Source: a bacterium (GTDB lineage Bacteria; Margulisbacteria; Marinamargulisbacteria; JABGVJ01). Taken from it: a stretch of DNA of 64,000 bases. Location of the stretch: the NCBI GenBank assembly GCA_018646105.1, contig JABGVJ010000013.1, positions 1,517 through 65,516 of the forward strand, written 5' to 3'. The notes beneath the pieces are model-generated. The model was not told the origin of the DNA, ran no database searches, and was given only the letters and a program-made list of their open reading frames with translations. This document shows positions 3,047 through 63,359 of the stretch, one piece after another. The translations under genes and the position numbers were made by a program. Position 1 is the first letter of the stretch. Each line of letters opens with the position of its first letter.

Positions 3047-5023
3047 ATGAATCACGAATATAATGCTACCCAAATAAAAGTTTTAGAAGGTCTTGAAGCT
3101 GTTCGTAAAAGACCTAGTATGTACATAGGCTCTACGGGCACACCTGGTTTAAACCATCTTGTTTACGAAGTAGTAGATAATAGTATTGATGAAGCCATGG
3201 CGGGCTTTTGTGATGTGGTAACAGTCACCATCGAACCTGATAATATCGTTACGGTAATTGATAACGGCCGTGGAATTCCAATTGATATACATAAAGATAA
3301 AGGACTACCCGCTGTTGAGGTGGTAATGACGACTTTACATGCTGGTGGAAAATTTGAAGGAAAAGGCTATAAAGTATCAGGCGGTTTGCACGGAGTAGGA
3401 GTTTCCGTAGTTAATGCCTTAGCGGAATGGTTAGTAGTAGAAGTTAAAAGAGATGGTAAAAAATATACGCAAAAATATTTTAGAGGGACTCCTAAAGAAA
3501 AATCTGGAAAACTAGAAGATTATAATGGTGATGATAGTGGAACGTTAATTCGCTTTAAGCCTGATCCGCAAATTTTTGAGTCTTGAGAATTCACTTCCGA
3601 AATAATCGATCATAGATTAAAAGAATTGGCCTTTTTAAATAAAGGTATAAAAATTATTTTTAAAGATACACGTTATGAAACCCCTACTGAAAAAGAATAT
3701 GTTTTTGAAGGCGGTCTTAAAGCTTATGTGGAAAATATTAATGAAAAAAAAGAACCTTTGTTTGCGCCTCCTATTTATCTAAAAAAAACCAGAGAACCTT
3801 ACGAAATAGAAGTCGCTATTCAATACGTTTCTGATTATTACGATGAACAGGTAATTTCTTTTGCTAATAATATTAGAACCAAAGAAGGTGGAACGCATAT
3901 CGCCGGCTTTAGAACTGCCTTAACTAGAGTAATCAACTCATTTGCTAAAAAATATGATTTGATAAAAGATAAAACCAAAAATTTTTCTGGCAATGATTTA
4001 AAAGAAGGTCTGACTGCTGTTATTAGTGTAAAACTACCACATCCTCAGTTTGAAGGGCAAACCAAAACCAAACTAGGAAACTCTGAGCTTAAAGGCATAG
4101 TGGATTCCATGGTAGACGAGAGCCTGACAGACGCAATTGAAACTACCCCTAAAATAGCAAAATTAATTATTAATAAAGCAGTTATTGCGCAAAGGGTGCG
4201 TGAAGCTACCAGACGAGCCCAAGATTTAGCGAGAAGAAAAAGCAGTCTGGAAAGCACAACGCTGCCAGGTAAGCTTGCGGACTGCTCTGATAAAGACCCT
4301 GCAAATTGCGAAGTATTTATTGTTGAGGGTGATTCTGCCGGAGGTTCCGCCAAGCAAGGAAGAGACAGAAACTTTCAGGCTATTTTACCTTTACGCGGTA
4401 AAATTTTAAATGTAGAGAAAGCAAGATTGGATAAAATTTTAGCAAATGAAGAAATTAAAGCTATGATTACAGCGCTTGGGCCAGAAGCTATTTCCGGTCT
4501 TTCTTCAGAGGATGACAATGAAGAAAACGGGACGGAAACTGAAGATGAAGATATAAAAAGAACTCTGAGTAAATTAAGATATCATAAAATCATCATCATG
4601 ACAGATGCTGATGTGGACGGATCTCATATTAGAACGCTGCTGTTAACTTTCTTTTTCAGACATGCAAAAGAAGTTATCTTGGCCGGTGGATTATATATTG
4701 CGCAACCACCTTTGTATTCTATAGGCCGCGGAAATGCAAAACAATACGCTATTGATGATGCGGCACTAGAGAAACTGTTAAAAGAAAAAGATATAACAAA
4801 AGAAGGGGCTCACATTCAACGCTACAAAGGTCTGGGAGAAATGAACCCTGATCAGCTTTGGGACACGACCATGGACCCAGAAAAAAGAAGTATGTTGCAA
4901 GTGACTATTGAAGACGCTGAAGAAGCGGACGATATTTTTACCACTTTAATGGGGAATAAAGTAGAGCCAAGGCGTGAATTTATTGAAAAATACGCCAAAA
5001 ACGTACGTTGGATAGATGTTTAA
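3047..5023 (+). CDS. gyrB: DNA gyrase subunit B, single reading frame interrupted by one in-frame TGA codon at 3584-3586 (possible pseudogene, sequencing error or recoding)
   Basis: ORFs 3047-3586 and 3626-5023 are in the same frame; concatenated translation aligns colinearly with GyrB (…[25 protein letters not shown]… vs B. subtilis …[27 protein letters not shown]…) with no indel; GHKL ATPase, TOPRIM (EGDSAGGS) and C-terminal domains all present. Confidence 0.85.
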
Positions 5024-5050: not shown

Positions 5051-7576
5051 ATGAGCGACGAGCAAAAACTATTTGAAGACACAAAAATAAAAAATATCAA
5101 CATTGACGCTGAAATGAAAAATTCCTTTTTGGAATATGCGATGTCCGTAATTGTTACCCGTGCTTTGCCAGATGTACGAGACGGATTAAAGCCAGTACAT
5201 AGAAGAATTATTTATGCTATGTATAATTCTGGCTTTACGGCAGGCAAACCTTATAAGAAATGTGCCAGAATTGTGGGGGATGTTTTAGGACGATACCATC
5301 CACATGGTGATACCGCCGTATACGACTCTCTTGTCAGAATGGCCCAAAATTTCTCACTACGTTATATGTTGATTGATGGACAGGGCAACTTTGGCTCTGT
5401 AGATGGAGACAGCGCTGCGGCTATGCGTTATACAGAAGCCAGAATGTCGAAAATCAGCATGGAGCTTGTCAAAGATCTTGAAAAAGAAACAGTAGAATGG
5501 GCACCAAATTTTGATGAATCATTAACAGAACCCTTGGTTTTACCCACCAGATTGCCGTCTTTGCTACTTAATGGATCTTCGGGAATTGCGGTAGGGATGG
5601 CTACCAATATACCTCCTCATAATTTAAATGAGTTATCGGACGGTGTTTGCGCCTTAATTGACAACCCAGAACTAGAGGGTCTTGAATTAATGAATTATAT
5701 TAAAGGCCCGGATTTCCCAACCGGCGGTATTATTTGCGGAGAAGAAGGTATTAGAAAAGCTTATCTCACAGGAAAAGGTTCTGTTGTAATAAGAAGTAAA
5801 ACAAGTATCGAAGAATCTAAAAAGAAAAATAAAAAAGCTATTATCGTGCATGAAATTCCTTATCAAGTTAATAAAGCTAATCTAATAATAAAAATAGCTG
5901 AACTTGTACAAGATAAAAAAATAACTGGAATTTCTGATTTAAGAGATGAGTCTGACAGAAAAGGTTTGCGAATCTATATTGAACTTAAAAAAGATGCGAT
6001 TCCAGATGTTATTTTAAATCAGCTGTTTAAGCATACTCAGCTGCAAGTCAGCTTTGGGGTAAACACAGTCGCACTTGTAAATGGCGTGCCTAAAACTTTA
6101 ACCTTAAAAAAAATTCTATCTTATTATATTTTACATAGAAAAGAAGTTGTAACAAAAAGAACGGAATATGACCTTAAAAATGCTAAGGCTAGACTCCATA
6201 TTTTAGAAGGTTTAAAAATCGCCCTTGATAACATTGACGAAATTATTGCTCTAATCAAAAAATCAACAAACACTATTGAAGCCAGATCAAATTTAATGAG
6301 TAAATTCAATTTATCTGAAAAGCAGTCTAACGCTATTTTGGATATGAAATTACAAAGATTAACTGGACTGGAAAGAGAAAAAATAGAATCCGAATATACG
6401 GAAATCATGAAAAAAATCGAAGATTTAGAAGATATTCTCGTTAATGAACCTAGAATTTACAATATTATTAAAGAAGAACAACTTGAGGTTAAGGATAAAT
6501 ATGGAGATAAAAGAAAAACAGAAATAAGCGGCGCTGTTGGGACAATGGATATAGAAGATTTAATTCCCAAACAACAAGTCGCGGTACTTATTTCCAAAAA
6601 AGGTTTTATAAAAAGATTACCTTTACATATTTTTAAAAGCCAATTAAGAGGTGGTCGCGGGGTCAGTGGTATGACCACTAGAGAAGAAGATATTATTGAT
6701 CAAATATTTGTGACTTCTTCTCATAACTTTTTATTGTGTTTTACTAATAAGGGTAAGGTTTTTAAAATCAAATGTTATCAAATTCCGGAAGCATCACGGC
6801 AAAGCAAGGGAGTTTCTATTTCACACTTTTTAAATTTTGATGAAGAAGAAAAAATTTCAACCATAATCCCTGTGAAAAATTTTGATACTGAAGACTATTT
6901 GTTAATGACTACGCAAAAAGGCATAGTTAAAAAAACAGCCGTAACTCTTTTTGCTTATTTAAAAAACAGTTCTATTATTGCGATTAATCTAGACGCTGGT
7001 GATAATCTTAAATGGGTAAAACGAACATCGGGGGATAAAAATGTCATCCTTTCTACTTCTGCGGGTATGGTAATCCGTTTTGAGGAAACGCAAATTCGAC
7101 CAATGGGTAGAAGTACGCGCGGTGTAAAAGGCATTAATATTAAGCCTGAAGACAATCTAACCAGTATGGATGTCATTGATCCAGAAGATAATACTCTTCA
7201 ATTATTGATCATCACCAAAAAAGGGTATGGTAAAAATTTAAAACTAGCGGAATTTAGATGTCAAAAACGAGGTGGTATTGGCGTAAAATGTTTGAAATTC
7301 AGAAAAACAATTAAAAATGATTTAGTAACCGATGCTTTGATCACCACTAAAGAAGATGAATTGATGATCGCTACTAAAGAAGGGGTTTTATGCCGACAAA
7401 AAATAGAGAATATCTCTACGCAAAGAAGACAATCTCAAGGCGTTAAAATTCAAAAACTAGATGCTAAAGACGAAGTAATAGCTATTGCACGTGTAATCAC
7501 AGAAAACGAGGCTATTAGTGAAGAAGAACCAGCCTCCACTGAAGTGGCTACGCAGAGCATGCCTTTGGTTGATTAA
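5051..7576 (+). CDS. gyrA: DNA gyrase subunit A
   Basis: 841 aa; [23 protein letters not shown], catalytic Tyr region RYTEARM, C-terminal beta-pinwheel repeats. Confidence 0.95.
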
Positions 7577-7587
7577 GCATATATGAC

Positions 7588-7821
7588 ATGAACAAAAATA
7601 TTGACCAGAAAAAGCCGATGGAGCTAGCTGAGTATTTTACATTAATAACCCAACTGGGTTTGGTTATGATCAGTCAAATATTTATTTTCTTTTTCCTAGG
7701 GCTTTTTCTGGTGAAAAAATTTCATTTGCCCAATATTTTTATTTTGTTATTTGTTTTAGTTGGTATTATTAGTGGGTTTTATTTTACATACGCCCTTATC
7801 CGTAAAGCTATTGATAACTAA
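7588..7821 (+). CDS. AtpZ/AtpR-like small 2-TM protein preceding ATP synthase operon
   Basis: 77 aa, two TM helices, position immediately upstream of atpI; resembles PF09527 putative F0F1-ATPase gene-1 proteins. Confidence 0.45.
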   Translation: MNKNIDQKKPMELAEYFTLITQLGLVMISQIFIFFFLGLFLVKKFHLPNIFILLFVLVGIISGFYFTYALIRKAIDN

Positions 7822-7865
7822 TTTAAAATTTGTTATAATATTTTTTTGATTTTTGATTTTTCTAT

Positions 7866-8279
7866 TTGCTTGTGAAAAAAATAACAATGAAAAAACCCAA
7901 AAATTTATTATTAATGTATAAACACTCGTTAAAAATCGTGGGGGGACTTTTAGTAATGTTTGGTTTAATTGCGCTTGTAACTCAAAAAACCTGGTTATTC
8001 TCTTCTTCGGTACTCGGTTTTGCTTTTGGTTTAGTAATTTTTAAAAATTGGATTACAAGTCAACAGAAAATTATGGAGTCTGCAAAAACCGGAACGTATT
8101 TTTTTTACTATGTTAGTCGCTTAATTCTTTTTACAATCCCCTTGATTACTGCTTTGTATTTTAAGTCTTTTTTTAATGTTTATATAACGTTGCTTTTTTT
8201 GCTTGCGTTCCAATGGTCTATGGTCTTAACAGAAGGCCTAAGAAACTTTGCCAAAGTAAAAAATAATCACTCGGAGTAA
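7866..8279 (+). CDS. atpI: ATP synthase protein I (AtpI)-like membrane protein
   Basis: 137 aa, multi-TM, located directly upstream of atpB as in canonical atpIBEFHAGDC operons. Confidence 0.5.
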   Translation: MLVKKITMKKPKNLLLMYKHSLKIVGGLLVMFGLIALVTQKTWLFSSSVLGFAFGLVIFKNWITSQQKIMESAKTGTYFFYYVSRLILFTIPLITALYFKSFFNVYITLLFLLAFQWSMVLTEGLRNFAKVKNNHSE

Positions 8280-8287
8280 AGAGAAAA

Positions 8288-9142
8288 ATGGAAGAATTAA
8301 CAAAAATTACTAGCGCTAGTATAAATTTATTTGGGCATATAATAACTTTTAACCCAAATGTATTTTATATGACTTGGTTGGTGATGGCGCTTATTATAAT
8401 TGTTCTTTTTTTGTGCACGCGCAAACTAACCGTTATCCCGCATAAATCACAAAATATTGTGGAAGTGGTCGTGGATTTTATTAAAAATATTACTTATTCT
8501 ACTTTAGGAAAAGAAGATGGCAAAAAATTCTTTCCTTTCATAATGACTTTATTTTTGTTTATCCTGATTTCAAACTGGATTGGCATTGTGCCTAATTTTA
8601 TACATTTTATAGGAGTCTTGTTTGCGGGCGCTCATAAACTACTCGGATCTGAAAATGTAAAAATCACTTATGAAGGGCTTACTTATATAAAGCTTTATCC
8701 AGATCCGAATGCTTGGTATGCCTTCTTTTTCAAGTTCCCAAAAATTGAAGAGCCTACTAAATTTTTGAGTACGGATTTGGCCGCAGCTCTTTTGGTTTTC
8801 TTAGTAGGACATGCTAGTGCAATCAAGGAAAAAGGGTTCTTGGCATATTTTAAAGGATATATGGATCCGGTGCCGTCTCATGCTCCTTGGATATTCTTTT
8901 TCTTTTTAAATCCATTTTTTTATTTAAATATTATAGGAGAACTAGGAAAAGTAGTGTCACATTCTGTACGACTTTTTGGGAATGTTTTTGGTGGCGGAAT
9001 TATTATTTTTATCGTCGCGACTCTTTTACGACATGTCTTATTGCCTGTTGGCCTTTATGCTTTTTTTGGTTTATTGGCTGGGTCTATTCAAGCATTTGTA
9101 TTTACAATGCTTGCGGTAACCTATATTTCCTTAGCAAAATAA
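8288..9142 (+). CDS. atpB: F0F1 ATP synthase subunit a
   Basis: 284 aa; conserved stator Arg region SHSVRLFGNVFGG. Confidence 0.9.
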   Translation: MEELTKITSASINLFGHIITFNPNVFYMTWLVMALIIIVLFLCTRKLTVIPHKSQNIVEVVVDFIKNITYSTLGKEDGKKFFPFIMTLFLFILISNWIGIVPNFIHFIGVLFAGAHKLLGSENVKITYEGLTYIKLYPDPNAWYAFFFKFPKIEEPTKFLSTDLAAALLVFLVGHASAIKEKGFLAYFKGYMDPVPSHAPWIFFFFLNPFFYLNIIGELGKVVSHSVRLFGNVFGGGIIIFIVATLLRHVLLPVGLYAFFGLLAGSIQAFVFTMLAVTYISLAK

Positions 9143-9155
9143 AAAGGAGCACGTT

Positions 9156-9626
9156 TTGAATTTTGTAACTTTGTGCGCGATTTTGGGAGCTGGTTTTAGT
9201 ATGGGCATTGGAGCTTTAGGGCCGGCCATGGGCGAAGGCATAATTGCGCTAAATGCAGTTAAAGCATTATCGAGACAACCTCGTGCCGCGGGCAAACTAA
9301 TGCGTATTATGTTGATAGGACAGGCCATAACCGAAACGCCGGCTATTTTTGCTTTGGTAATATCCTTACTGCTATTGTTTCAGGACAGCGGGGATTCATT
9401 TGTAAAAGGGGTGGCTTTTTTAATAGCGGGTATAGCGATGGGTATATCAACTCTAGGCGCTAGTTTTGGAGCCTCTTTCCCTGGAAAAACGGCTAGTACA
9501 GCAGTGGGCAGACAGCCCGAAAATATTGAGGCCTTGATGGTTAGCATGATAATTGGACAAGCTATAACTGGGACTACGGTTATTTACACGACCGTGGTAG
9601 CTATGATTTTAATTTTTGTTGTTTAA
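9156..9626 (+). CDS. atpE: ATP synthase c subunit, tandem-fused double hairpin (4 TM, 156 aa); second hairpin lacks the ion-binding Glu
   Basis: Two c-subunit repeats, each with the RQP loop. Hairpin 1 helix 2 is LIGQAITETPAIF (Glu present); hairpin 2 helix 4 is IIGQAITGTTVIY (Glu replaced by Gly). Confidence 0.8.
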   Translation: MNFVTLCAILGAGFSMGIGALGPAMGEGIIALNAVKALSRQPRAAGKLMRIMLIGQAITETPAIFALVISLLLLFQDSGDSFVKGVAFLIAGIAMGISTLGASFGASFPGKTASTAVGRQPENIEALMVSMIIGQAITGTTVIYTTVVAMILIFVV

Positions 9627-9708
9627 TCTGAAAGGAGCGTATAAATTAGTCATATTTAAAAACGTTAAAAAAATTAATAAATATTAAAAAAGAAAGGAAG
9701 TATGAAAA

Positions 9709-9960
9709 ATGGAAGGAATAAGTGGAGCAGATTTAATTAAAGTGGTTTCTTTAGCAGTGGCGGGAATTACAATGGCTATTGGTTCAATTGGGCCAAGTCT
9801 AGGAGAAGGTTTTGTGGCAGCAAAGGCATGCGAAGCGCTTGGTAAAAGACCGGATCAAGCTGAAGTTATCACTAGAACAATGCTAATTGGACAGGCAGTT
9901 ACAGAAACAACTGGTATTTACTGTTTAGTTATAGCTTTGATTCTAATTTTTGTTGTTTAA
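9709..9960 (+). CDS. atpE: ATP synthase c subunit (single hairpin, 83 aa) with E/E-T-T-Y putative Na+-binding motif
   Basis: GPSLGEGFVAAKA…LIGQAVTETTGIYCLVIALILIF; aligns to Ilyobacter/Fusobacterium c subunits with Glu at positions 32 and 65 equivalents, T66, T67, Y70. Confidence 0.9.
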   Translation: MEGISGADLIKVVSLAVAGITMAIGSIGPSLGEGFVAAKACEALGKRPDQAEVITRTMLIGQAVTETTGIYCLVIALILIFVV

Positions 9961-9981
9961 GAAAAAACGGATACTTTTTAT

Positions 9982-10005
9982 GTCCCCCAGGGCATGCCCT
10001 GGGAC
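9982..10005 (+). other. GC-rich perfect palindrome/hairpin between atpE and atpF (possible intra-operon attenuator/mRNA stability element)
   Basis: CCCAGGGCATGCCCTGGG (9986-10003), a 7-bp G+C stem in an AT-rich region with no following U-tract. Confidence 0.35.
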
Positions 10006-10064
10006 CGGCTTTCGTCGCTAAGTTGCGCGGATGGCTAAGTAAAATAAAATAAAGGAGAGAATAC

Positions 10065-10544
10065 GTGATTTCGCTTAATATATATGAAATCATAATGCAA
10101 ATTTTTAATTTCTTTTTGCTATTATGGGTTCTAAAGTTATTAGTATATAAGCCTCTGCTTGCTTTTTTAGATAAAAGGGCGGACTCCATTCAAAATAATA
10201 TTAAAGAAACAGAAGCTAATAAAAAAGAAGCTCAAGAAATTTTAACAGAACAAAAAGAAGTTTTTGTCCAAGCTCGCTTGGAAGCAAAAAAAATAAGAGA
10301 GCATGTTGAAGCAAACAGCCAGCAAGAACGAGAATTAACATTGGCTAAAACTGAAGATGCTGCTAAAAAAATAATCGAAAATGCCAAAAAAGAAATTGAT
10401 GCTAATTTAGTAGAGGCGCAAAAAGTATTGTTGAAAAAAGTAGGGGCGACTTCAATTTTATTGGCGGAAAAAATATTAAAGAAAAATCTAAATACGGAAG
10501 AAAATAAAAATATTATCAAAACTTATTTGGAAGAAGAAAAATGA
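10065..10544 (+). CDS. atpF: ATP synthase subunit b
   Basis: 159 aa, N-terminal TM then long charged coiled coil; operon position. Confidence 0.75.
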   Translation: MISLNIYEIIMQIFNFFLLLWVLKLLVYKPLLAFLDKRADSIQNNIKETEANKKEAQEILTEQKEVFVQARLEAKKIREHVEANSQQERELTLAKTEDAAKKIIENAKKEIDANLVEAQKVLLKKVGATSILLAEKILKKNLNTEENKNIIKTYLEEEK

Positions 10545-11071
10545 AAAAAATGAAATTAGCTAAACGGTACATGGCGGCTTTTCAAGCTACTTTAGCAGAC
10601 AAAGACCATCAAGCTGCTTTGGCTGAATTTATAGCTATTACAAACTTATTTTTAGAAAAAAAGATAATATTAAATTTTCTAAAAAGTCCGTTAGTTGATA
10701 TAGAAAAAAAGATATCATTTATGAAAAAAGTTTGTGTAAACTTAAAATATACAGATAAAATAAAAAAACTTTTAATTTTATTGTTAAGAAAAAAACGGCA
10801 AGAAATTTTTTTGGAACTAAAAATAATAGCTGAAAAAGAAATAGAAAAACTGCAAAATTTATGGCCTGCTAAAATTGTTTTGTCTGAAGATTGTACTGAA
10901 AACATTAAAAAAAATATTGTTAAAAAATTAGAAGAAAAAGAAAACAAAAAAATAAAACCTATGTTTATTATTAACCCTGTTATATTGGGTGGGTTTAAAG
11001 CTTATATTGAAAATAAAGTTTATGATGCCTCTATAAAAACAGTTTTAAATAAAATAAAAGCTAAACTTTAA
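10541..11071 (+). CDS. atpH: ATP synthase subunit delta
   Basis: 176 aa, position between b and alpha; start overlaps atpF stop (ATGA). Confidence 0.7.
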
Positions 11072-11085
11072 AAAAAGGAGATGAA

Positions 11086-12594
11086 ATGAAAATAAATCCA
11101 GAAGAAATAACGGCAATACTGCAAAAAGAAATTGAAGAATATAAAATGGCCTTGGACGTTTCTGAAACAGGAACTGTTTTACAAGTAGGAGATAATACGG
11201 CACGGGTCTTTGGTTTAGAAAACGTAATGTCTCAAGAATTAGTAAAATTTTCAGATGTTCTTTATGGTATTGCTATCAACTTAGAAGAAGATAGTGTGGG
11301 ATGTGTGGTTCTAGGCGATTGTACCGAAATAAAAGAAGGCGATACTGTAGAAAGAACCGGCCATATTTTATCTGTTCCGGTAGGAGAAAGTTTGTTGGGA
11401 CGCGTAGTAGATCCTTTAGGTAATCCGCTGGATAACGCCGGCGAAATTAAAAGCACAAAAAGAAAACCTATTGAGCGTATTGCGGCTGGCGTGTGTGACC
11501 GGCAACCTGTAAAAGAATCTTTGCAAACAGGCATTAAATGTGTGGATACAATGATTCCTATTGGACGCGGGCAAAGAGAATTAATTATCGGAGACCGGAA
11601 AACCGGAAAGACAGCGATTGCCATTGATACGATTATTAATCAAAAAGATACTGGCGTAATCTGTATTTATGTAGCGATCGGTCAGAAAAAGTCTTCAATT
11701 TCTAAAATAGTACATACCTTAAAAAATTATGGGGCTATGGATTATACCATAGTCGTAGCGGCCGCGGCATCAGACACTGCCGCGCTACAATATATCGCCC
11801 CTTATGCAGGATGTGCGATGGGCGAAGAATTTATGGATAATGGAAAAGCGGTTTTAATTGTATATGATGATTTATCTAAACATGCTACTGCTTATCGTCA
11901 ATTATCTTTGCTTTTACGAAGACCTCCGGGAAGAGAAGCTTTTCCAGGTGATGTTTTTTACCTACATTCCCGTCTTTTAGAAAGAGCCTTAAAATATTCT
12001 AAAGAAAAGGGCGGAGGCTCTTTAACTGCTTTGCCAATTATTGAGACGCAGGCAAGTGATGTTTCTGCTTATATTCCTACGAATGTTATCTCGATTACAG
12101 ATGGACAAATTTATTTAGAAGCTAATTTGTTTAATGCGGGCATTAAACCTGCTATCAATCCAGGTATTTCCGTTTCGCGTGTAGGTGGTAGTGCTCAAAT
12201 AAAAGCTACCAAACAAGTAGCGGGAAGTTTGCGTATAGATCTGGCTCAATATTGGGAAATCGAAGCTTTTTCTCAATTTGGTTCTGATCTAGATAAAGCT
12301 ACCTTGGCCCAATTAGCACGGGGGAAAAGATTGGTGGAAATTTTAAAGCAAGATCAATATGATCCTATTCCTATTTCTTTACAAATAGCAATTGTGTATG
12401 CAGCTGTAAAAGGATATTTAGACAGCATTAGCCTGAAAAATATAGCTGAGTTTGAAAAAGAGCTTTTTGCAGTTTTAAGAACACAAAAACGGGATTTGCT
12501 TGAAAAAATAGAAACAAAAAAAATCTTGGATGATGATATAAAAAAAGAATTAAATACCGTGATTCAAACCTGCAAAGAAACCTTGGTGAATTAA
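11086..12594 (+). CDS. atpA: ATP synthase subunit alpha
   Basis: 502 aa; Walker A GDRKTGKT; strong family similarity. Confidence 0.95.
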
Positions 12595-12612
12595 TAAAAG
12601 TAAAAGGTAATT

Positions 12613-13485
12613 ATGGCAAACATAAATAAAATTAAAAACAGAATTAGTTCTGTTAAAAAAATCAGAAAAATAACCCAAGCCATGAAAATGGTATCGGCGG
12701 CAAAGTTTAAAAAAGCAACTAATCTTGTGAATACGGCCCGCAATTATGATGATGCCCTTAAAGAAATTATCAATAGTTTTGCTTACAAATTAGAAGATGC
12801 TTCATTACCTATTTATTTTCAAAATAGTAGCCGACGAAAAATAGCGGTAATCGTAGTTGCGGCAGACCGAGGTTTATGCGGAGCTTTTAATAGTGCTCTC
12901 TTAAAGTCAACACAAGCTTTTTTAGAAAAACAAACACAAGCTGAGAAAATTGATTTGTACTTATTTGGAAAAAGAGCGGAACTTTTTTTTAAAAACAAAA
13001 AATGGCCTATTAAAAAAACTTTTTCGGTTGAACTAGGTCATTTAAAAACAGAGGATATCTTAGAAAAACTAGCTGAATTGCCCGAAAACTTTAGAAACGA
13101 AGAGATAGATACTATCCTTCTTTTTGCAAATAAATTAAACGGGGCTTTATCTAATGAAATGACGCCTGCTCAAATTTTGCCAATTAGTATGCCTCAAAAA
13201 AATATAGAAGATGATAAAATTTTCACAGATTTTATTTATGAAGTTGATCAAGAGAAAACTTTAAAAAATCTAGCTTTAAAATGCTTTTGCTTTTTCATTT
13301 ACCATGCGTTAATTGAAAGTAGAGCAACAGAAGAAAAATTAAGAATGGTGGCCATGGATGCCGCTACCAAAAATGCTAATGATTTTATTAATAGCTTAAC
13401 GATAATTTATAATCGAACCAGGCAAGCTATAATAACCAAAGAAATTTCAGAAATAGTAGCTGGGGCTGAAGCTTTAGCTGATTAA
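12613..13485 (+). CDS. atpG: ATP synthase subunit gamma
   Basis: 290 aa; N-terminus IKNRISSVKKIRKITQAMKMVSAAKF and C-terminus RQAIITKEISEIVAGAEAL are typical of gamma. Confidence 0.9.
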   Translation: MANINKIKNRISSVKKIRKITQAMKMVSAAKFKKATNLVNTARNYDDALKEIINSFAYKLEDASLPIYFQNSSRRKIAVIVVAADRGLCGAFNSALLKSTQAFLEKQTQAEKIDLYLFGKRAELFFKNKKWPIKKTFSVELGHLKTEDILEKLAELPENFRNEEIDTILLFANKLNGALSNEMTPAQILPISMPQKNIEDDKIFTDFIYEVDQEKTLKNLALKCFCFFIYHALIESRATEEKLRMVAMDAATKNANDFINSLTIIYNRTRQAIITKEISEIVAGAEALAD

Positions 13486-13489
13486 ATAA

Positions 13490-15171
<1,682 letters not shown>

Positions 15172-18101: not shown

Positions 18102-18800
18102 CTAAAAACCATCTTTAATTTTGACAATAATTTGATTTATACCTTTTTTAGCTAAAGCCAACATAGCCAGTAATTGTTCATGTGAAAAAGTGTTTTTTTC
18201 AGCAGTTCCTTGGATTTCAACAAATTTACCGCTTTCCGTCATTACAATATTCATATCTACATCGGCATTTAAATCATGTTTATAATCTAAATCTAAAATC
18301 ACTTCTTGATTAAACACCCCTACACTAACCGCTGCTAATAATTCTCTAATAGGGTTTTTAGTGATTTTTTTATTTTCTTGTAAATATTGAACAGCGCTGA
18401 CAAGAGCGGCCATGCCTCCAGAAATAGCGGCCGTACGCGTGCCTCCGTCAGCCTGTAAAACGTCAGCATCAATATAAATAGTACGTTCCCCTAAAGCTTT
18501 TAAGTCTGAAATAGATCTTAGAGAACGACCAATTAAACGCTGTATTTCAGAAGTACGTCCGGATAATTTACCTTTACTAATTTCTCTATTCGTACGTGAA
18601 ACAGTAGAAGATGGCAAAAGCGAATATTCAGCGGTCAACCATCCTTGCCCTCTTCCCTTAAGAAAAGAAGGCACTTTTTCTTCGATAGTAGCGGTACATA
18701 AAACCTTGGTATTACCATAAGAAACCAAAACAGAGCCCGGCGCATATTTAGTAAATTTCTTAATAAAAGTTACAGGTCTTAGTTCTTCAGTTTTTTTCAT
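18102..18800 (-). CDS. rph: ribonuclease PH
   Basis: 232 aa, near end-to-end similarity to RNase PH (ELRPVTF…[16 protein letters not shown]…[10 protein letters not shown]…). Confidence 0.95.
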
Positions 18801-28995: not shown

Positions 28996-29072
<77 letters not shown>

Positions 29073-47982: not shown

Positions 47983-48152
47983 CTAAATAATCCTCTTCTG
48001 TTTTTATATTAAAGTGACAGGCTTCTTGTTTATTGGCTTGTTACTAAGCCGTAAGACACTGTATTTTTTTATTATATAATAATTTACAAAAGTTTGTTTT
48101 GTATAGTATTATTAGCCAACATTGAAATCAATGTTTAGTATAAACCTAATAA

Positions 48153-48351
48153 TTATCCACAATTATTAGATCTTATTGTTGATAAACTTGTTGACAACCT
48201 TGTTAATAACTTTTTTTCGTGAGTAATTACTATTTAGTTAATATTTTTTGTGGGTTAGATTTCCTTATAATATATTAAACTTTACCAAAAAAAAGAGCGC
48301 TCGGTTAATTTTATTTTGTTTTTATTTTTTTTGTGGATAATTTGTGGATAA
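48153..48351. promoter_or_regulatory. DnaA-box cluster upstream of dnaA (putative oriC half / dnaA autoregulatory region)
   Basis: Perfect TTATCCACA at 48153-48161; two perfect TGTGGATAA at 48332-48340 and 48343-48351; three tandem 12-bp degenerate boxes TTGTTGATAAAC / TTGTTGACAACC / TTGTTAATAAC at 48176-48210. Confidence 0.6.
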
Positions 48352-48377
48352 TATAATAAAACAGGTGGTTTTTTACG

Positions 48378-49703
48378 ATGAATACGGTTTGGAATTCAAT
48401 TGTTACGGTTTTAAAAGAAAAGCTTTCGGATCCTAATTTTCAAATATTTTATAGTTCTACAAAACCTATTAATTATTTAGAAAACATTCTGACTTTAAAG
48501 GTAGACAGTCAGTTTTCTAAAGCATGGGTTATGGAAAAATGTGATCCATTAATTAAGGTTTTTTTTAAAGACACTGAATATGAAAATATAGTGCTAAATA
48601 TTATAGTAGAAGAACCACAAGAAGAAGAGCCCGCGGCTTTACCTCTTTTTAAGCGGCCCGTTTCTAATGTTTCTAATAGACTAAACCCTAAGTTTTCTTT
48701 TGAAAATTTTATAGCTGGTAATAATAATAGATTTGCACACGCCGCGGCCATGGCTGTAGCTAAAAGTCCAGCTAAAGCTTATAACCCTTTGTTTATCTAT
48801 GGTCCGGTTGGTATAGGTAAAACCCACCTTTTACACGCTATTTGTTGGTATTTAATAAAAATTAATCCTGGTATAAAAGTAAAAATCGTTACTTCTGAAA
48901 AGTTTACGAACGAACTGATTAATTCCATAAAAGATAGAAATGTGAAAAATTTCAAAAATAATTATAGAAATATAGATGTATTGCTAGTTGATGATATACA
49001 ATTTTTAGCGGGAAAAGAAACGACTCAAGAAGAGTTCTTTCATACATTTAATGAATTACATGGAAACAATAAACAAATCGTTATGACGTCGGATAGACCG
49101 CCTAAAGATATTCCCACATTACAAGATAGGTTACGAACCAGATTTACCTGGGGGTTAATTGCGGATATACAACCACCGGAACTAGAAACACGTATTGCTA
49201 TTTTAAAAAAAATCACAGAGATAAATAATATTATTATTTCTGATGAAATTTTACACTTTGTAGCAACTCAAATCCCTAGTAATGTAAGGGAACTAGAAGG
49301 CGCCTTAACGCGTATAGTGGCTTATTCATCTTTATTGAACACCGAGGCGACTCTTTCTATAGCAAGTAATGTAATACGAGATATAGTAACAATAAAACAA
49401 GAAAGACCATTAACGATTAGTTTAATAAAAAGAAAAGCTTGTGATTATTTTAATATAGACTTTGATAGATTATCTTCAAAAAACAGAACAAGGGATTTGG
49501 CATATGCGAGACAAATAGCTATGTACTTAGCAAGAGAACTAACTAATGTTTCTTTACCTAAAATTGGTGAGAATTTTGGAAACCGTGACCATACAACAGT
49601 AATGCATGCTTGTGATAAAATAAAAAATTTAATAGATACTGACAGTAATACAAAAAATATTATTAATATATTAATTTCATCTATTAAAAATGCGGGAGCT
49701 TAA
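48378..49703 (+). CDS. dnaA: chromosomal replication initiator protein DnaA
   Basis: 441 aa; AAA+ Walker A GPVGIGKTHLL, LLVDDIQFL, C-terminal DNA-binding domain. Confidence 0.95.
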   Translation: MNTVWNSIVTVLKEKLSDPNFQIFYSSTKPINYLENILTLKVDSQFSKAWVMEKCDPLIKVFFKDTEYENIVLNIIVEEPQEEEPAALPLFKRPVSNVSNRLNPKFSFENFIAGNNNRFAHAAAMAVAKSPAKAYNPLFIYGPVGIGKTHLLHAICWYLIKINPGIKVKIVTSEKFTNELINSIKDRNVKNFKNNYRNIDVLLVDDIQFLAGKETTQEEFFHTFNELHGNNKQIVMTSDRPPKDIPTLQDRLRTRFTWGLIADIQPPELETRIAILKKITEINNIIISDEILHFVATQIPSNVRELEGALTRIVAYSSLLNTEATLSIASNVIRDIVTIKQERPLTISLIKRKACDYFNIDFDRLSSKNRTRDLAYARQIAMYLARELTNVSLPKIGENFGNRDHTTVMHACDKIKNLIDTDSNTKNIINILISSIKNAGA

Positions 49704-49732
49704 TTAGCTTCTACGCTGTTTAGATATTAAGG

Positions 49733-49950
49733 TTGTTGATTAGTTGTTGATTAGTTGTTAATAAATTGTTGATAAATTGTTAAAATAATCATATAAAAAG
49801 AAAGTGGTTTGAGTTATCCTCAAATTATAAAATCTAAAAAAGGGGTTTTTAAGTTTAAAAGAGAGGTTATCCACATATTAACAGCTCTTACTAATACAAT
49901 ATATAATATAATTATTAATTAATAGTAGTTATATATAATAAATAAAGGAG
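49733..49950. promoter_or_regulatory. DnaA-box array plus AT-rich unwinding-like region between dnaA and dnaN (putative oriC)
   Basis: Five head-to-tail 11-bp repeats TTGTTGATTAG x2, TTGTTAATAAA, TTGTTGATAAA, TTGTTAAAATA (49733-49787); TTATCCTCA (49814-49822); perfect TTATCCACA (49867-49875); then >70 bp of nearly pure A/T (49880-49950). Confidence 0.6.
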
Positions 49951-49958
49951 GTATTTAA

Positions 49959-51101
49959 ATGAAATTTAAGTGTTCTAGTTCTTTGTTACAAAAAGGGGTT
50001 AATATCGTTGAGAAAGCGGTTTCTCAGAAAACCAATTTACCTATAATGGAAAATATTTTTATGGAGTTAAAAGATCATAAATTGAAAATGATGGGTAATG
50101 ATTTGGAATTAGGTATCGAGTATTTTATTTCTATCGAAAACATAGAACAGGAAGGGGCTGTTTTATTAAAAGCCAAGACAATTAGTAGTATTGTTTCTAA
50201 GTTAGATAACCAGCTACTTAGTTTACAAGTTGATGAAAATAAAAAAATTATTATTAATGCTGATAAAGTGGATTTTAATATTCTTGGTACTGATGTGTCT
50301 GAATATCCTGTTTTCCCGCAGGTTGAAGAGGGCCTTTCTTTTGAGCTTGAAGTTCGTGATTTAAAAGAATTACTTAAATACACTATTTTTGCGGTTTCTT
50401 TTGATGAAACTAAGGAATTTCTAAATGGTATTTTAATAAAAAATGAAGAGGATTATTTGTATTTTGTTTCTACAGATGGGTATCGACTTTCTTTGAAGAG
50501 AAAAAAAATAACTAAACCAGCTACTGATTTTTCCGCAATAGTTCCTTTTAGAGTCATGAATGAATTGTATAAAATTTTACAAAATATAGATCCTGATGCG
50601 AAAATTAAACTTAATATTTCAACTAATCAGGTGTCGTTTATGATGGATGGTTTTTTATTGGTATCTAGGGTTATCCAGGGAACTTTTCCTGATTATAAAC
50701 AGGTTTTACCTAAAGAATTTGATAATGTCATTACGGTCGGTAGAAGAAATTTTATTCAAGCGGCAGAAAGAGCGTCTATTATAGCTTCCGTTTCTAATAA
50801 TGTGGTTAAATTGATTTTTAGCGATGTTTTAGAAATTAAGGCGAACGCTCCTAAAATGGGTGGTTTTAATGAAGAAATTAATATTACCAATCAAAACATA
50901 AAGGGTATAGATAATTTAAAGGTAGCTTTTAATGTTAGACTTCTTTTAGATGTAATGAAAACTCTAGAAGCTGATGATGTTTTGATCGAAGTTAATGATG
51001 AGTTAAAACCATGTGTAATTAGATCTGTTGCTGATGAAGACTATACTTATATTATTATGCCTATAAGAACAAGTGACTATAAGAATGAAGATGATTCTTA
51101 A
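49959..51101 (+). CDS. dnaN: DNA polymerase III beta sliding clamp
   Basis: 380 aa, three-domain clamp organisation, position after dnaA. Confidence 0.9.
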   Translation: MKFKCSSSLLQKGVNIVEKAVSQKTNLPIMENIFMELKDHKLKMMGNDLELGIEYFISIENIEQEGAVLLKAKTISSIVSKLDNQLLSLQVDENKKIIINADKVDFNILGTDVSEYPVFPQVEEGLSFELEVRDLKELLKYTIFAVSFDETKEFLNGILIKNEEDYLYFVSTDGYRLSLKRKKITKPATDFSAIVPFRVMNELYKILQNIDPDAKIKLNISTNQVSFMMDGFLLVSRVIQGTFPDYKQVLPKEFDNVITVGRRNFIQAAERASIIASVSNNVVKLIFSDVLEIKANAPKMGGFNEEINITNQNIKGIDNLKVAFNVRLLLDVMKTLEADDVLIEVNDELKPCVIRSVADEDYTYIIMPIRTSDYKNEDDS

Positions 51102-52623: not shown

Positions 52624-53988
52624 TTAGTCTGTTTGGTTTAGGGCGGCTATAGCAGCACCTAAGAGGGATCCATTTTTAGTTAACACAAGGTTTATTTTTT
52701 TATTATTATTTTTAAAGATATTATTTAAAGAGGATATCATTCTTTCTGAGTATTTATAATATTTTTCGAAAATAGAGCCATCGATAGCAACGACATGGTT
52801 TTGGGAAAGAGTGGGGTCGATTTTTTTTAAAGATCCGGCTAAACAAGCCGCGGCTATTTTTGCGCTACGGTTAGAAATAAGTTGGATGATTTTTTTTGCT
52901 TTGATTCTAGTGGCTAGAGTAGATTCGATTTGGAGGGTAGTTAAGATTTGTTTGGTTTTTTTTAAGCCTAAAGAAGTATCTTTTTCTATTTCAGATAAAT
53001 AGGGGGTATGAAAACTGTTTTTTTTGTGAATGAGGTGTGAGGACGGTAAATTAGTAAGGGTTTTTAAAATTATTAATCTAAAGAGCTCGCCTAAATATGC
53101 CCCTGAAATCATTTTTTCAGCTATTTGTTGCCCGGGGTTTTCTGAATTTTGGTCTAATGTTTTATCAAACTCAGTGCGAGGAATAATTTGTTGAATAGCA
53201 AAATCCCCAGATTCGGTAACATAAATCATTTTGTCTATTAAAAGGCAAATATTAGTTCCGCTACCAAGTATCATAGAAACATCGCAATTTTGATTAAAAT
53301 AAGCTTTGGTGATGAGGGTGCCTGTAGTGTCGTTTAAAAGAGCTTTTATTTTTATATTGGAAAGGTGGATTTTTTTTAGAGCGTTTTGTAAAAGGACATG
53401 GGGGTCTTTGCCTTTAATTTCTGTTTCGCAGAATTCTTTGGATAAGGTTATGATTTGGCCATGGCTAGCATTTTTAGCGTTTAAATGGAAGCTAAAGGTA
53501 AGGCCTAAAGAAATGTCTGTTTGGTTGTTTTCTTGCGAGATAAGTTTACGAATGTGTTGCGCTATGTGGTCAAAAATAAGCAGAGGGTGTTTTTTTTCAA
53601 TAGGACTAATTTTTTTTTGAATTTTTTTTGAGATATCTATTTCTTCTGGATTAATTATTTTAGGATCTAAGTTTACTTTTAAAATTCTTAAATTTGAGCC
53701 GCCCCAATCAATCGCTAAGGTAATCCCGCTTTTTTTTTGAGAAGAAGGCTTAATATGGGTTTTCAGCATTTTGAGAGAGCTTTTTTTTTGATGTAAACCG
53801 TTATTTATTTCAGTTAGAAAAAATAGGGTGATATCTATAAGGGTTTGAGAAGAAAGAGTAAGCTGTTTTTTTAAGGATTGATGGTGTGAAGATATTTTAG
53901 GAAGAGATATTTTACTAAAAGACGGAGACAGAGGGGCTTTGTGCTTATAATGTTTAAAAAGATTGGTTTTTAAGGCCTGTTTTTTCAT
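52624..53988 (-). CDS. hexokinase-family sugar kinase
   Basis: Hexokinase signatures LAIDWGGSNLRILKV, LGLTFSFHL, ALLNDTTGTL, GSGTNICL, ISGAYLGE, VAIDGSIF, GSLLGAAIAA. Confidence 0.8.
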   Translation of the reverse strand: MKKQALKTNLFKHYKHKAPLSPSFSKISLPKISSHHQSLKKQLTLSSQTLIDITLFFLTEINNGLHQKKSSLKMLKTHIKPSSQKKSGITLAIDWGGSNLRILKVNLDPKIINPEEIDISKKIQKKISPIEKKHPLLIFDHIAQHIRKLISQENNQTDISLGLTFSFHLNAKNASHGQIITLSKEFCETEIKGKDPHVLLQNALKKIHLSNIKIKALLNDTTGTLITKAYFNQNCDVSMILGSGTNICLLIDKMIYVTESGDFAIQQIIPRTEFDKTLDQNSENPGQQIAEKMISGAYLGELFRLIILKTLTNLPSSHLIHKKNSFHTPYLSEIEKDTSLGLKKTKQILTTLQIESTLATRIKAKKIIQLISNRSAKIAAACLAGSLKKIDPTLSQNHVVAIDGSIFEKYYKYSERMISSLNNIFKNNNKKINLVLTKNGSLLGAAIAALNQTD

Positions 53989-61674: not shown

Positions 61675-62772
61675 CTATTGGGATTTTGAAATATTTAATA
61701 TTACACTAATAAAAAATATGGAAGTGAGTAGAGAGGTTCCTCCATAGCTGATGAAGGTTAAAGGGATGCCTGTGGTGGGCAAAACGCCAATGACTACGCC
61801 GATATTTATAAATGCTTGGACAACCAAAAACAAGGAAAGCCCTAACGCAAGGAAATAAGCAAACGTGTTTTTTGCAAAAAGAGCGATTTTTAATCCCCTA
61901 AAGAATAGAAAGGTAAAAAGAAAAAGAATGATGCTCGCTAAAATAAACCCTCCCTCTTCGCAGATGATAGCATAAATAAAGTCTGAATAATGAAGAGGTA
62001 GATAAAAATATTTTAGTTTGCTTTGTCCAAGCCCGTTTCCTAGAATGCCGCCAGAGCCAATGGCCGTGAAAGATTGTACTGTGTGATAATTTTTTCCTAA
62101 AGGATCGGCCCAGGGCGTTAAGAAAGATTGGATTCTGGTTATTTGATAGGGATGCATAAAAATATTTATGGAAATTAAGGAAATTCCAATAAAAGCGAAG
62201 ATGAGTAAATGTTTGATTTTGGCCTTGCTTAAAAATAAAAGTGAAAAAGTGACGATTAAGATAACAACTATGTTGCCAAGGTCTGGTTGTAAACCTAAGA
62301 GTAGGATAGGGATGCTGATAATGAGTAGTAGCGGGAGTATTCCTTTGAAAAAACTTTGAATTTGTTTTTTTTTATTAGCAAAAGCGGCGGCTAGAAAAAC
62401 AGTAATAAAAAATTTGCAGATTTCGACAGGCTGGAGTTGAAAAAAGTAAAGGTTTATCCAGCGAGAAGCCCCTCCTATTTTACGACCAATAGAAGGAGCA
62501 AAGGTCAAGAGCAGTAAAAGAATAGAAAAAAGCAGGCCGCTAAAAGCAAATTTTTGATAATGTTTATAGGGAATAAGATAGCCGGCTATAAATAGAGGAA
62601 TGCCAATAAGAAAGAATATGAAAAAGCGTTTAATAAAAAAATAACTATCATTATAAGTAGAGTAACCAACAACAGGGCTGGTAGAAAAAAGCATAACCGT
62701 GCCGATAGTAATTAATAGGCAGGTCGTGATAAAAAGAGGCCAGTCCCAAATTTGATGCTTGTTTTTATTCAT
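61675..62772 (-). CDS. SEDS-family peptidoglycan glycosyltransferase (FtsW/RodA)
   Basis: 365 aa, ~10 TM, SEDS motifs (PDLG, …SGG…), start ATG overlaps tetR stop (ATGA). Confidence 0.8.
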   Translation of the reverse strand: MNKNKHQIWDWPLFITTCLLITIGTVMLFSTSPVVGYSTYNDSYFFIKRFFIFFLIGIPLFIAGYLIPYKHYQKFAFSGLLFSILLLLLTFAPSIGRKIGGASRWINLYFFQLQPVEICKFFITVFLAAAFANKKKQIQSFFKGILPLLLIISIPILLLGLQPDLGNIVVILIVTFSLLFLSKAKIKHLLIFAFIGISLISINIFMHPYQITRIQSFLTPWADPLGKNYHTVQSFTAIGSGGILGNGLGQSKLKYFYLPLHYSDFIYAIICEEGGFILASIILFLFTFLFFRGLKIALFAKNTFAYFLALGLSLFLVVQAFINIGVVIGVLPTTGIPLTFISYGGTSLLTSIFFISVILNISKSQ

Positions 62773-63359
62773 AAATCTAGTATTCCGTCTAGATATCCAC
62801 GGACAAAGGAATCTGCTAGGCTGTAGGCGTTTTCAAGACTAATGATGCTCATTTTGCCGCTAAGACATAACGTACAAATTCCGTGCATTCCAGCCCAAAG
62901 GACACTGGTGGCTTTTTGAGCCAAAGGTAGGTTGTTTTTTAAAGTAGGGAGAAGGGCGCTTGATACTGTGAGGAACATTTTGTCTATTTCTAGCTGAGCC
63001 CAAGGGGGGAACTCTTCGCCTTTGGGCATACTATAATTGAAAAGCATGTTAGCAAGCTGGAAGTTTGATTTCCAAAAATCAATATAACATTTAGCCAATT
63101 CAGGCATAGAATTATGATGTTGAGTAAGGTTTAACTTTATTTTTGTGTGTAAATTGATAAGGGTGCGAGCATTAACTTTTAAAATGATTTCGTTGAGATT
63201 TTTAAATACATTATATAGGGTGCCTACTGTATAGCCGATTTCTTGAGATATTTTGCGGGCTGATAATTTTTGATAGCCTTCTTGTTCTATGATTTTTTCA
63301 GCCGCCTTTAGAATTAATTCTTGTAATTGTTCTATGGAATGATCATTGCGACGACCCAT
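62769..63359 (-). CDS. TetR/AcrR-family transcriptional regulator
   Basis: N-terminal HTH LSARKISQEIGYTVGTLYNVF; 196 aa. Confidence 0.8.
   Translation of the reverse strand: MGRRNDHSIEQLQELILKAAEKIIEQEGYQKLSARKISQEIGYTVGTLYNVFKNLNEIILKVNARTLINLHTKIKLNLTQHHNSMPELAKCYIDFWKSNFQLANMLFNYSMPKGEEFPPWAQLEIDKMFLTVSSALLPTLKNNLPLAQKATSVLWAGMHGICTLCLSGKMSIISLENAYSLADSFVRGYLDGILDL

Follow-up and report, generated by a model that had tools for sequence, protein, structure and literature searches.

How can gyrB, an essential gene, carry an internal stop codon? The question arises from a 64-kb stretch of bacterial DNA (64,000 nucleotides, here called the window), in which the gene for DNA gyrase subunit B is interrupted by a TGA in its own reading frame. 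The earlier note on this DNA, which was made from the letters alone, listed three candidates: a sequence error, a recent pseudogenisation, and site-specific recoding of UGA. We analyzed the gene itself, its homologues, its counterparts in other assemblies of the same population, and the use of TGA throughout the window.

The gyrB frame and its internal TGA

Translation and Pfam analysis placed gyrB at positions 3047 to 5023 of the forward strand, with 658 codons, the 180th of which is TGA (3584 to 3586, forward strand). This is the only internal stop in the translation, and the gene itself ends with TAA. In the list of open reading frames (ORFs), 3047-3586 and 3626-5023 share one frame. Both the translation and the ORF list thus confirmed the initial description of a single in-frame TGA splitting one continuous gyrB frame. 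A frameshift in gyrB was considered and rejected, since the frame is continuous and none is needed. A six-frame stop-to-stop scan of the 64 kb revealed gyrB as the only long same-frame pair that is separated by TGA and lies within one gene. The remaining same-frame pairs were adjacent genes or antisense noise. In line with what the earlier note had stated, no further gene in the window is broken by an in-frame TGA.

The neighboring gyrA gene (5051 to 7576, forward strand) is intact and begins 27 nt downstream of gyrB, as in a normal gyrBA operon; the Pfam domains DNA_topoisoIV and DNA_gyraseA_C were detected on the matching gene in a sister locus (L002). The genes for an F-type ATP synthase follow (7588 to 15171). 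This operon contains two adjacent c-subunit genes, at 9156-9626 and 9709-9960. One c subunit has 156 aa and two PF00137 stretches and looks like a duplicated, four-helix version, while the other is of normal size (83 aa).

In GyrB, Pfam detected HATPase_c, DNA_gyraseB, Toprim, and DNA_gyraseB_C. Residue 180 falls between the HATPase_c core (34-148) and DNA_gyraseB (223-393), and it is spanned by solved N-terminal ATPase fragments of ~220 residues (4duh_A; query 1-210 aligned with chain 1-210). The Pfam spans and the aligned structures bear out the claim that the break lies within the ATPase domain. Termination at codon 180 would remove 478 of the 658 residues, Toprim included.

The position of the break bears on whether GyrB could be naturally split here, with polypeptides 1-179 and ~194-658 reassembling. 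The TTG at 3626 does open a same-frame ORF of 465 codons, but the cut falls inside the N-terminal ATPase fragment, a restart at this TTG would lose 13 conserved residues, and no Shine-Dalgarno-like purine run precedes the TTG at proper spacing. Furthermore, the relatives all have GyrB as a single protein of 650 to 660 aa, and restarting at TTG 3626 is contradicted by the intact gene in every sister assembly. We regard a naturally split GyrB as improbable to the point of being negligible.

Codon 180 in homologues and sister assemblies

A protein search matched full-length GyrB proteins in the thousands. Among the closest hits, those with names came from Margulisbacteria or Marinamargulisbacteria metagenome-assembled and single-amplified genomes (MAGs and SAGs), with 70 to 78% identity, and one cluster reached 98%. 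This cluster comprises three proteins (P0001, P0125, and P0121), each with 658 aa and a cysteine at position 180. P0121 is represented at NCBI by MBT3261353.1, MBT4552398.1, MBT5989184.1, and MBT7088463.1, which originate from different MAGs. Its coding sequence is present on 18 contigs, which belong to NCBI, ENA, JGI, and Logan assemblies. A further ENA protein (P0122; 499 aa) looks chimeric, with 39 unrelated residues fused to GyrB from approximately residue 199.

At the DNA level, we compared P0121-encoding contigs from nine assemblies (ENA, three NCBI MAGs, and Logan). Codon 180 is TGT in all nine. Elsewhere across the 1977-nt gyrB, six of these assemblies show no difference from the window, and the remaining three have one or two additional differences. 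Since the window gyrB matches the P0121-encoding DNA except for 1 to 3 nt, the GyrB of the window is P0121 with Cys180 replaced by a stop. In addition, JGI metagenomes were searched with a degenerate pattern for the surrounding amino acid context; only one contig was matched, and it also has TGT. Thus, base 3586 is A in the window and T in 10 of 10 other covering assemblies of the same marine Margulisbacteria-like population, none of which carries the TGA. The ancestral codon is one substitution away from the stop (TGT to TGA, T to A at the third position). The difference at codon 180 is restricted to one record, and the independent assemblies of the population agree among themselves. In an exact look-up in a large assembly collection, no gene product identical to the 179-aa GyrB fragment was on record. 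Likewise, a 49-mer around codon 180, with N at the variable base, had no match in the GTDB species genomes.

One of the sister contigs, ERZ508549 NODE_1517 (L004), looks chimeric: its match to the window ends at locus position 12791, corresponding to window position 5837 inside gyrA, and HSP20, VanW, L32, and SMC genes lie beyond this breakpoint. In sister contigs, a GntR/aminotransferase protein is encoded ~2.5 kb upstream of the window; its best hit in the GTDB species genomes had 51% identity.

The alignment of 121 homologues has, at column 180, Ile in 51, Val in 46, Leu in 18, Thr in 4, and Cys in 2 sequences, the cysteine being confined to this species group. The idea that the TGA occupies a freely variable position did not hold, since 119 of the 121 homologues have I, V, L, or T there. 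This lack of Cys conservation marks column 180 as a presumably buried aliphatic position, and a redox site would not be expected there.

TGA as terminator and the search for recoding signals

To see how TGA is used, stop codons were tallied in a nonoverlapping gene set that covers 92% of the window. Besides gyrB, 50 genes end with TAA, 11 with TAG, and 10 with TGA. Among the last are the gene for an NAD-dependent epimerase-family protein (1922-2842) and the tetR gene (62769-63359), both of which had been named as ending with TGA. According to the coordinates, five of the TGA stops lie in 4-nt start/stop overlaps (10541/10544, 14902/14905, 19263/19266, 39213/39216, and 62769/62772). Ending 10 other genes, five of them in such overlaps, TGA is an ordinary terminator here.

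These data bear directly on an alternative code, in which UGA would be a sense codon (Trp in table 4 or Gly in table 25) in the whole genome or in this strain. The low G+C content (~33%) and the uncultivated lineage resemble some lineages with reassigned UGA. However, the TGA in gyrB is the only in-frame case among ~70 genes, the 10 TGA terminators include five that are tied by a 4-nt overlap to the next start codon, and the same genes are called full-length under table 11 in other assemblies. Within the 64-kb window, an alternative code is already refuted, and the exclusion of a genome-wide code 4 or 25, which the earlier note had argued for, stands. The probability that such a code explains the gyrB TGA is vanishingly small.

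Programmed recoding at this single site would leave other traces. In bacteria, selenocysteine recoding involves a UGA with a SECIS hairpin just downstream, SelB, and tRNA-Sec. That Sec replaces Cys180 in a Sec/Cys pair, or that programmed readthrough occurs at this site, gains some appeal from the frame, which runs on without a shift, and from the UGA lying exactly at the Cys position of the population, which is the classic Sec/Cys pattern. Indeed, the UGA aligned with the Cys of P0121, P0001, and P0125 and with that of 10 DNA loci. Against this, the UGA is a singleton facing TGT in 10 of 10 assemblies and is not conserved in close genomes. Furthermore, Cys180 is not a conserved redox Cys/Sec, its column being occupied by I, V, L, or T in nearly all homologues.

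The RNA-level signals were negative as well. The coding sequence just 3' of the TGA (3587 to 3660, forward strand) showed no SECIS-like structure in folding or Rfam analysis. The 77 nt from the UGA folded with a minimum free energy of -8.6 kcal/mol, compared with a shuffle mean of -8.18 (z = -0.15), which upheld the initial observation that no SECIS lies downstream. This downstream sequence is identical to that in the TGT-carrying assemblies, which means that the UGA has no SECIS-like element of its own. Around the TGA site, Rfam gave nothing but chance-level matches (E 3 to 7). ARAGORN detected neither a tRNA-Sec nor a tRNA with a UCA anticodon in the window or in five flanking sister-contig loci, but only tRNA-Arg(TCT), and no Sel-like Pfam domains were present in the gene tables of the sister loci. 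The tRNA-Arg(TCT) gene (28996-29072, forward strand) is the sole tRNA gene in the 64 kb according to ARAGORN, and Rfam also found one tRNA.

Judged by these sequence comparisons, programmed recoding is already contradicted by the population data, and we give it a very small probability. Of the candidates listed at the outset, site-specific UGA recoding is the one that fell: the UGA stands alone against TGT in all 10 other assemblies, the Cys is unconserved, and the 179-aa fragment is on record nowhere.

Private bases of the window and the origin of the TGA

We compared the whole 64 kb with 24 loci from 16 other assemblies, which had 99.6 to 100% identity to the window; beyond gyrB, the sister contigs were taken around recG, aroA, and dnaE. 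Across the 24 loci, there were no indels relative to the window except for one in L023. Even between samples and projects, the population is extremely clonal: most assemblies share 99.9 to 100% identity with the window over 6 to 22 kb. ERZ27250255, JGI Ga0233430, and ERZ23491424 represent slightly more distant strains (99.55 to 99.84% identity to the window).

In the 15 kb common to the gyrB-bearing contigs, position 3586 is the sole site at which the window differs from all ten. In the entire 64 kb, the window has private bases at exactly two sites, 3586 and 18508. At the latter, it has G, compared with A in six of six other assemblies. The site lies in the RNase PH gene (18102-18800, reverse strand), where it changes codon 98 from TTA (Leu), present in the six assemblies, to TCA (Ser). 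Residue 98 lies at a hydrophobic position of RNase PH, where the aligned B. subtilis enzyme (1oyp) has Val. In an exact look-up, the Ser98 form of the protein was not on record.

The other variants in the population comprise 95 synonymous, 25 nonsynonymous, and 15 intergenic changes and one indel. Since 79% of its coding single-nucleotide variants (SNVs) are synonymous, the population is under strong purifying selection. If every possible single substitution in these genes is counted, 21% are synonymous, 74% missense, and 5% nonsense. Both window-private changes alter the protein, one being nonsense and the other Leu to Ser, in each case at a conserved hydrophobic position, and thus look unselected when set against the population variants. 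The chance that both are nonsynonymous is ~0.04 under the population spectrum and ~0.6 if unselected, although these values refer to two sites only. This is weak evidence, which points to errors or brand-new mutations rather than standing variation.

Gene breaks that are private to one assembly do occur in this data set, as illustrated by ERZ23491424 (L023): a 1-bp deletion found in this assembly alone, at window position 53781, splits a hexokinase-family gene into 74 and 381 aa. In the window, this gene (52624-53988, reverse strand) encodes a 454-aa protein with PF00349 and PF03727, characteristic of the classical hexokinase family, and is located directly downstream of dnaE. The window also contains the chromosomal origin region, with dnaA (48378-49703) and dnaN (49959-51101). 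Perfect DnaA boxes (TTATCCACA) were found upstream of dnaA (region 47983-48377) at 48153, 48332, and 48343, and one more at 49867 between dnaA and dnaN (region 49704-49958). Boxes with one mismatch lie beside the perfect ones, and the window total is 28 boxes compared with 17 expected.

The TGA in gyrB occurs in one record only, the gene being otherwise identical, no recoding signals are present, and TGA is a normal stop in the window. We therefore consider it most likely to be a base error in this record, the technical cause being inferred. According to this explanation, the organism's gyrB is a normal, intact gene with TGT (Cys) at codon 180, and a single T-to-A change at 3586, private to this assembly, turns TGT into TGA. 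The A most likely arose as an error while the DNA was sequenced or amplified or when the consensus was called, with coverage probably low, and there is neither recoding nor a split gyrase.

Three considerations favor an error. First, no living population can carry, as its majority allele, a stop by which an essential enzyme loses 478 residues. Second, at any given base, reads and amplification introduce errors far more often than new mutations arise. Third, the sister contigs in these samples have low coverage (3 to 7x in the contig names), and at such depth, few reads decide the consensus. On the other hand, the record is very clean, with no indels and only the two private substitutions in 64 kb, so that the assembly is not generally error-prone. 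Furthermore, a random substitution gives a stop in only ~5% of cases; this case was picked because it makes a stop.

The rival is a real and very recent TGT-to-TGA nonsense mutation in the sampled cell or in a subpopulation, representing either a non-viable, dead-end lineage of which DNA was sampled by chance or a hypomorph living on leaky UGA. The base is present in the record of an otherwise clean assembly, the ancestral codon is only one step from TGA, and the unselected look of both private changes would fit brand-new mutations too. However, gyrB is essential and the stop would abolish most of its product, including Toprim, and a lethal allele cannot be in the majority in a population consensus. 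In addition, the number of read or amplification errors per base far exceeds that of new mutations, and among the assembly and protein records, the TGA allele is confined to this one. A real nonsense allele is therefore unlikely. Of the candidates proposed in the earlier note, an error thus holds as the most likely, and pseudogenisation, in the form of a private nonsense allele, is less likely.

UGA is leaky, being read by the near-cognate tRNA-Trp or tRNA-Cys, and tRNA-Cys would restore the wild-type residue at position 180. One could imagine a viable strain in which the A at 3586 is genuine and has become fixed, and which makes enough full-length GyrB by efficient UGA readthrough, for example through tRNA-Cys or a strain-specific suppressor. 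If true, this strain would be a natural example of a bacterium that keeps an essential gene in spite of a premature stop, but we consider it very improbable. Programmed recoding, an alternative code, and a split GyrB are very improbable even when taken jointly.

In summary, the TGA in gyrB is an ordinary record-specific base difference, which is biologically nothing new and has no bearing on the evolution of the genetic code. It calls for caution, as a lone in-frame TGA resembles recoding when it interrupts an essential gene in a bacterium that is uncultivated and low in G+C, and this one even mimics a Sec/Cys pair. The comparison with sister assemblies exposes it as a one-record singleton. 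If the record is public, annotation would list its gyrB as a pseudogene, or the gene would be missing from marker sets, in either case for a technical reason.

Four known phenomena can be compared with this locus. Leaky termination at UGA by near-cognate tRNAs would, if the allele is real, be the sole known way in which some full-length GyrB could be made. It is, however, a passive process of low efficiency with no programmed feature, and folding of the downstream sequence revealed no enhancing context. Codes with reassigned UGA are known from Mollicutes (table 4) and from Gracilibacteria and Absconditabacteria (table 25). They share with this case a low-G+C, uncultivated bacterium and an in-frame TGA in a conserved gene, but differ in that only one such TGA is present in 64 kb here and that TGA terminates 10 genes.

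Bacterial selenocysteine recoding resembles the locus in the alignment of the UGA with the Cys codon of the orthologues and in the continuing frame. In contrast to that system, no SECIS-like hairpin was detected here, the Cys is neither conserved nor catalytic, the UGA is present in 1 of 11 assemblies and is thus unconserved, and no sel genes or tRNA-Sec turned up in the sequence available for this genome (~75 kb). The fourth phenomenon is the assembly-private internal stop of MAGs and draft genomes, which leads annotation pipelines to mark the affected gene as a pseudogene. Nothing distinguishes the gyrB TGA from this class, with which it shares both the substitution to a stop in one record and the intact gene in the sister assemblies.
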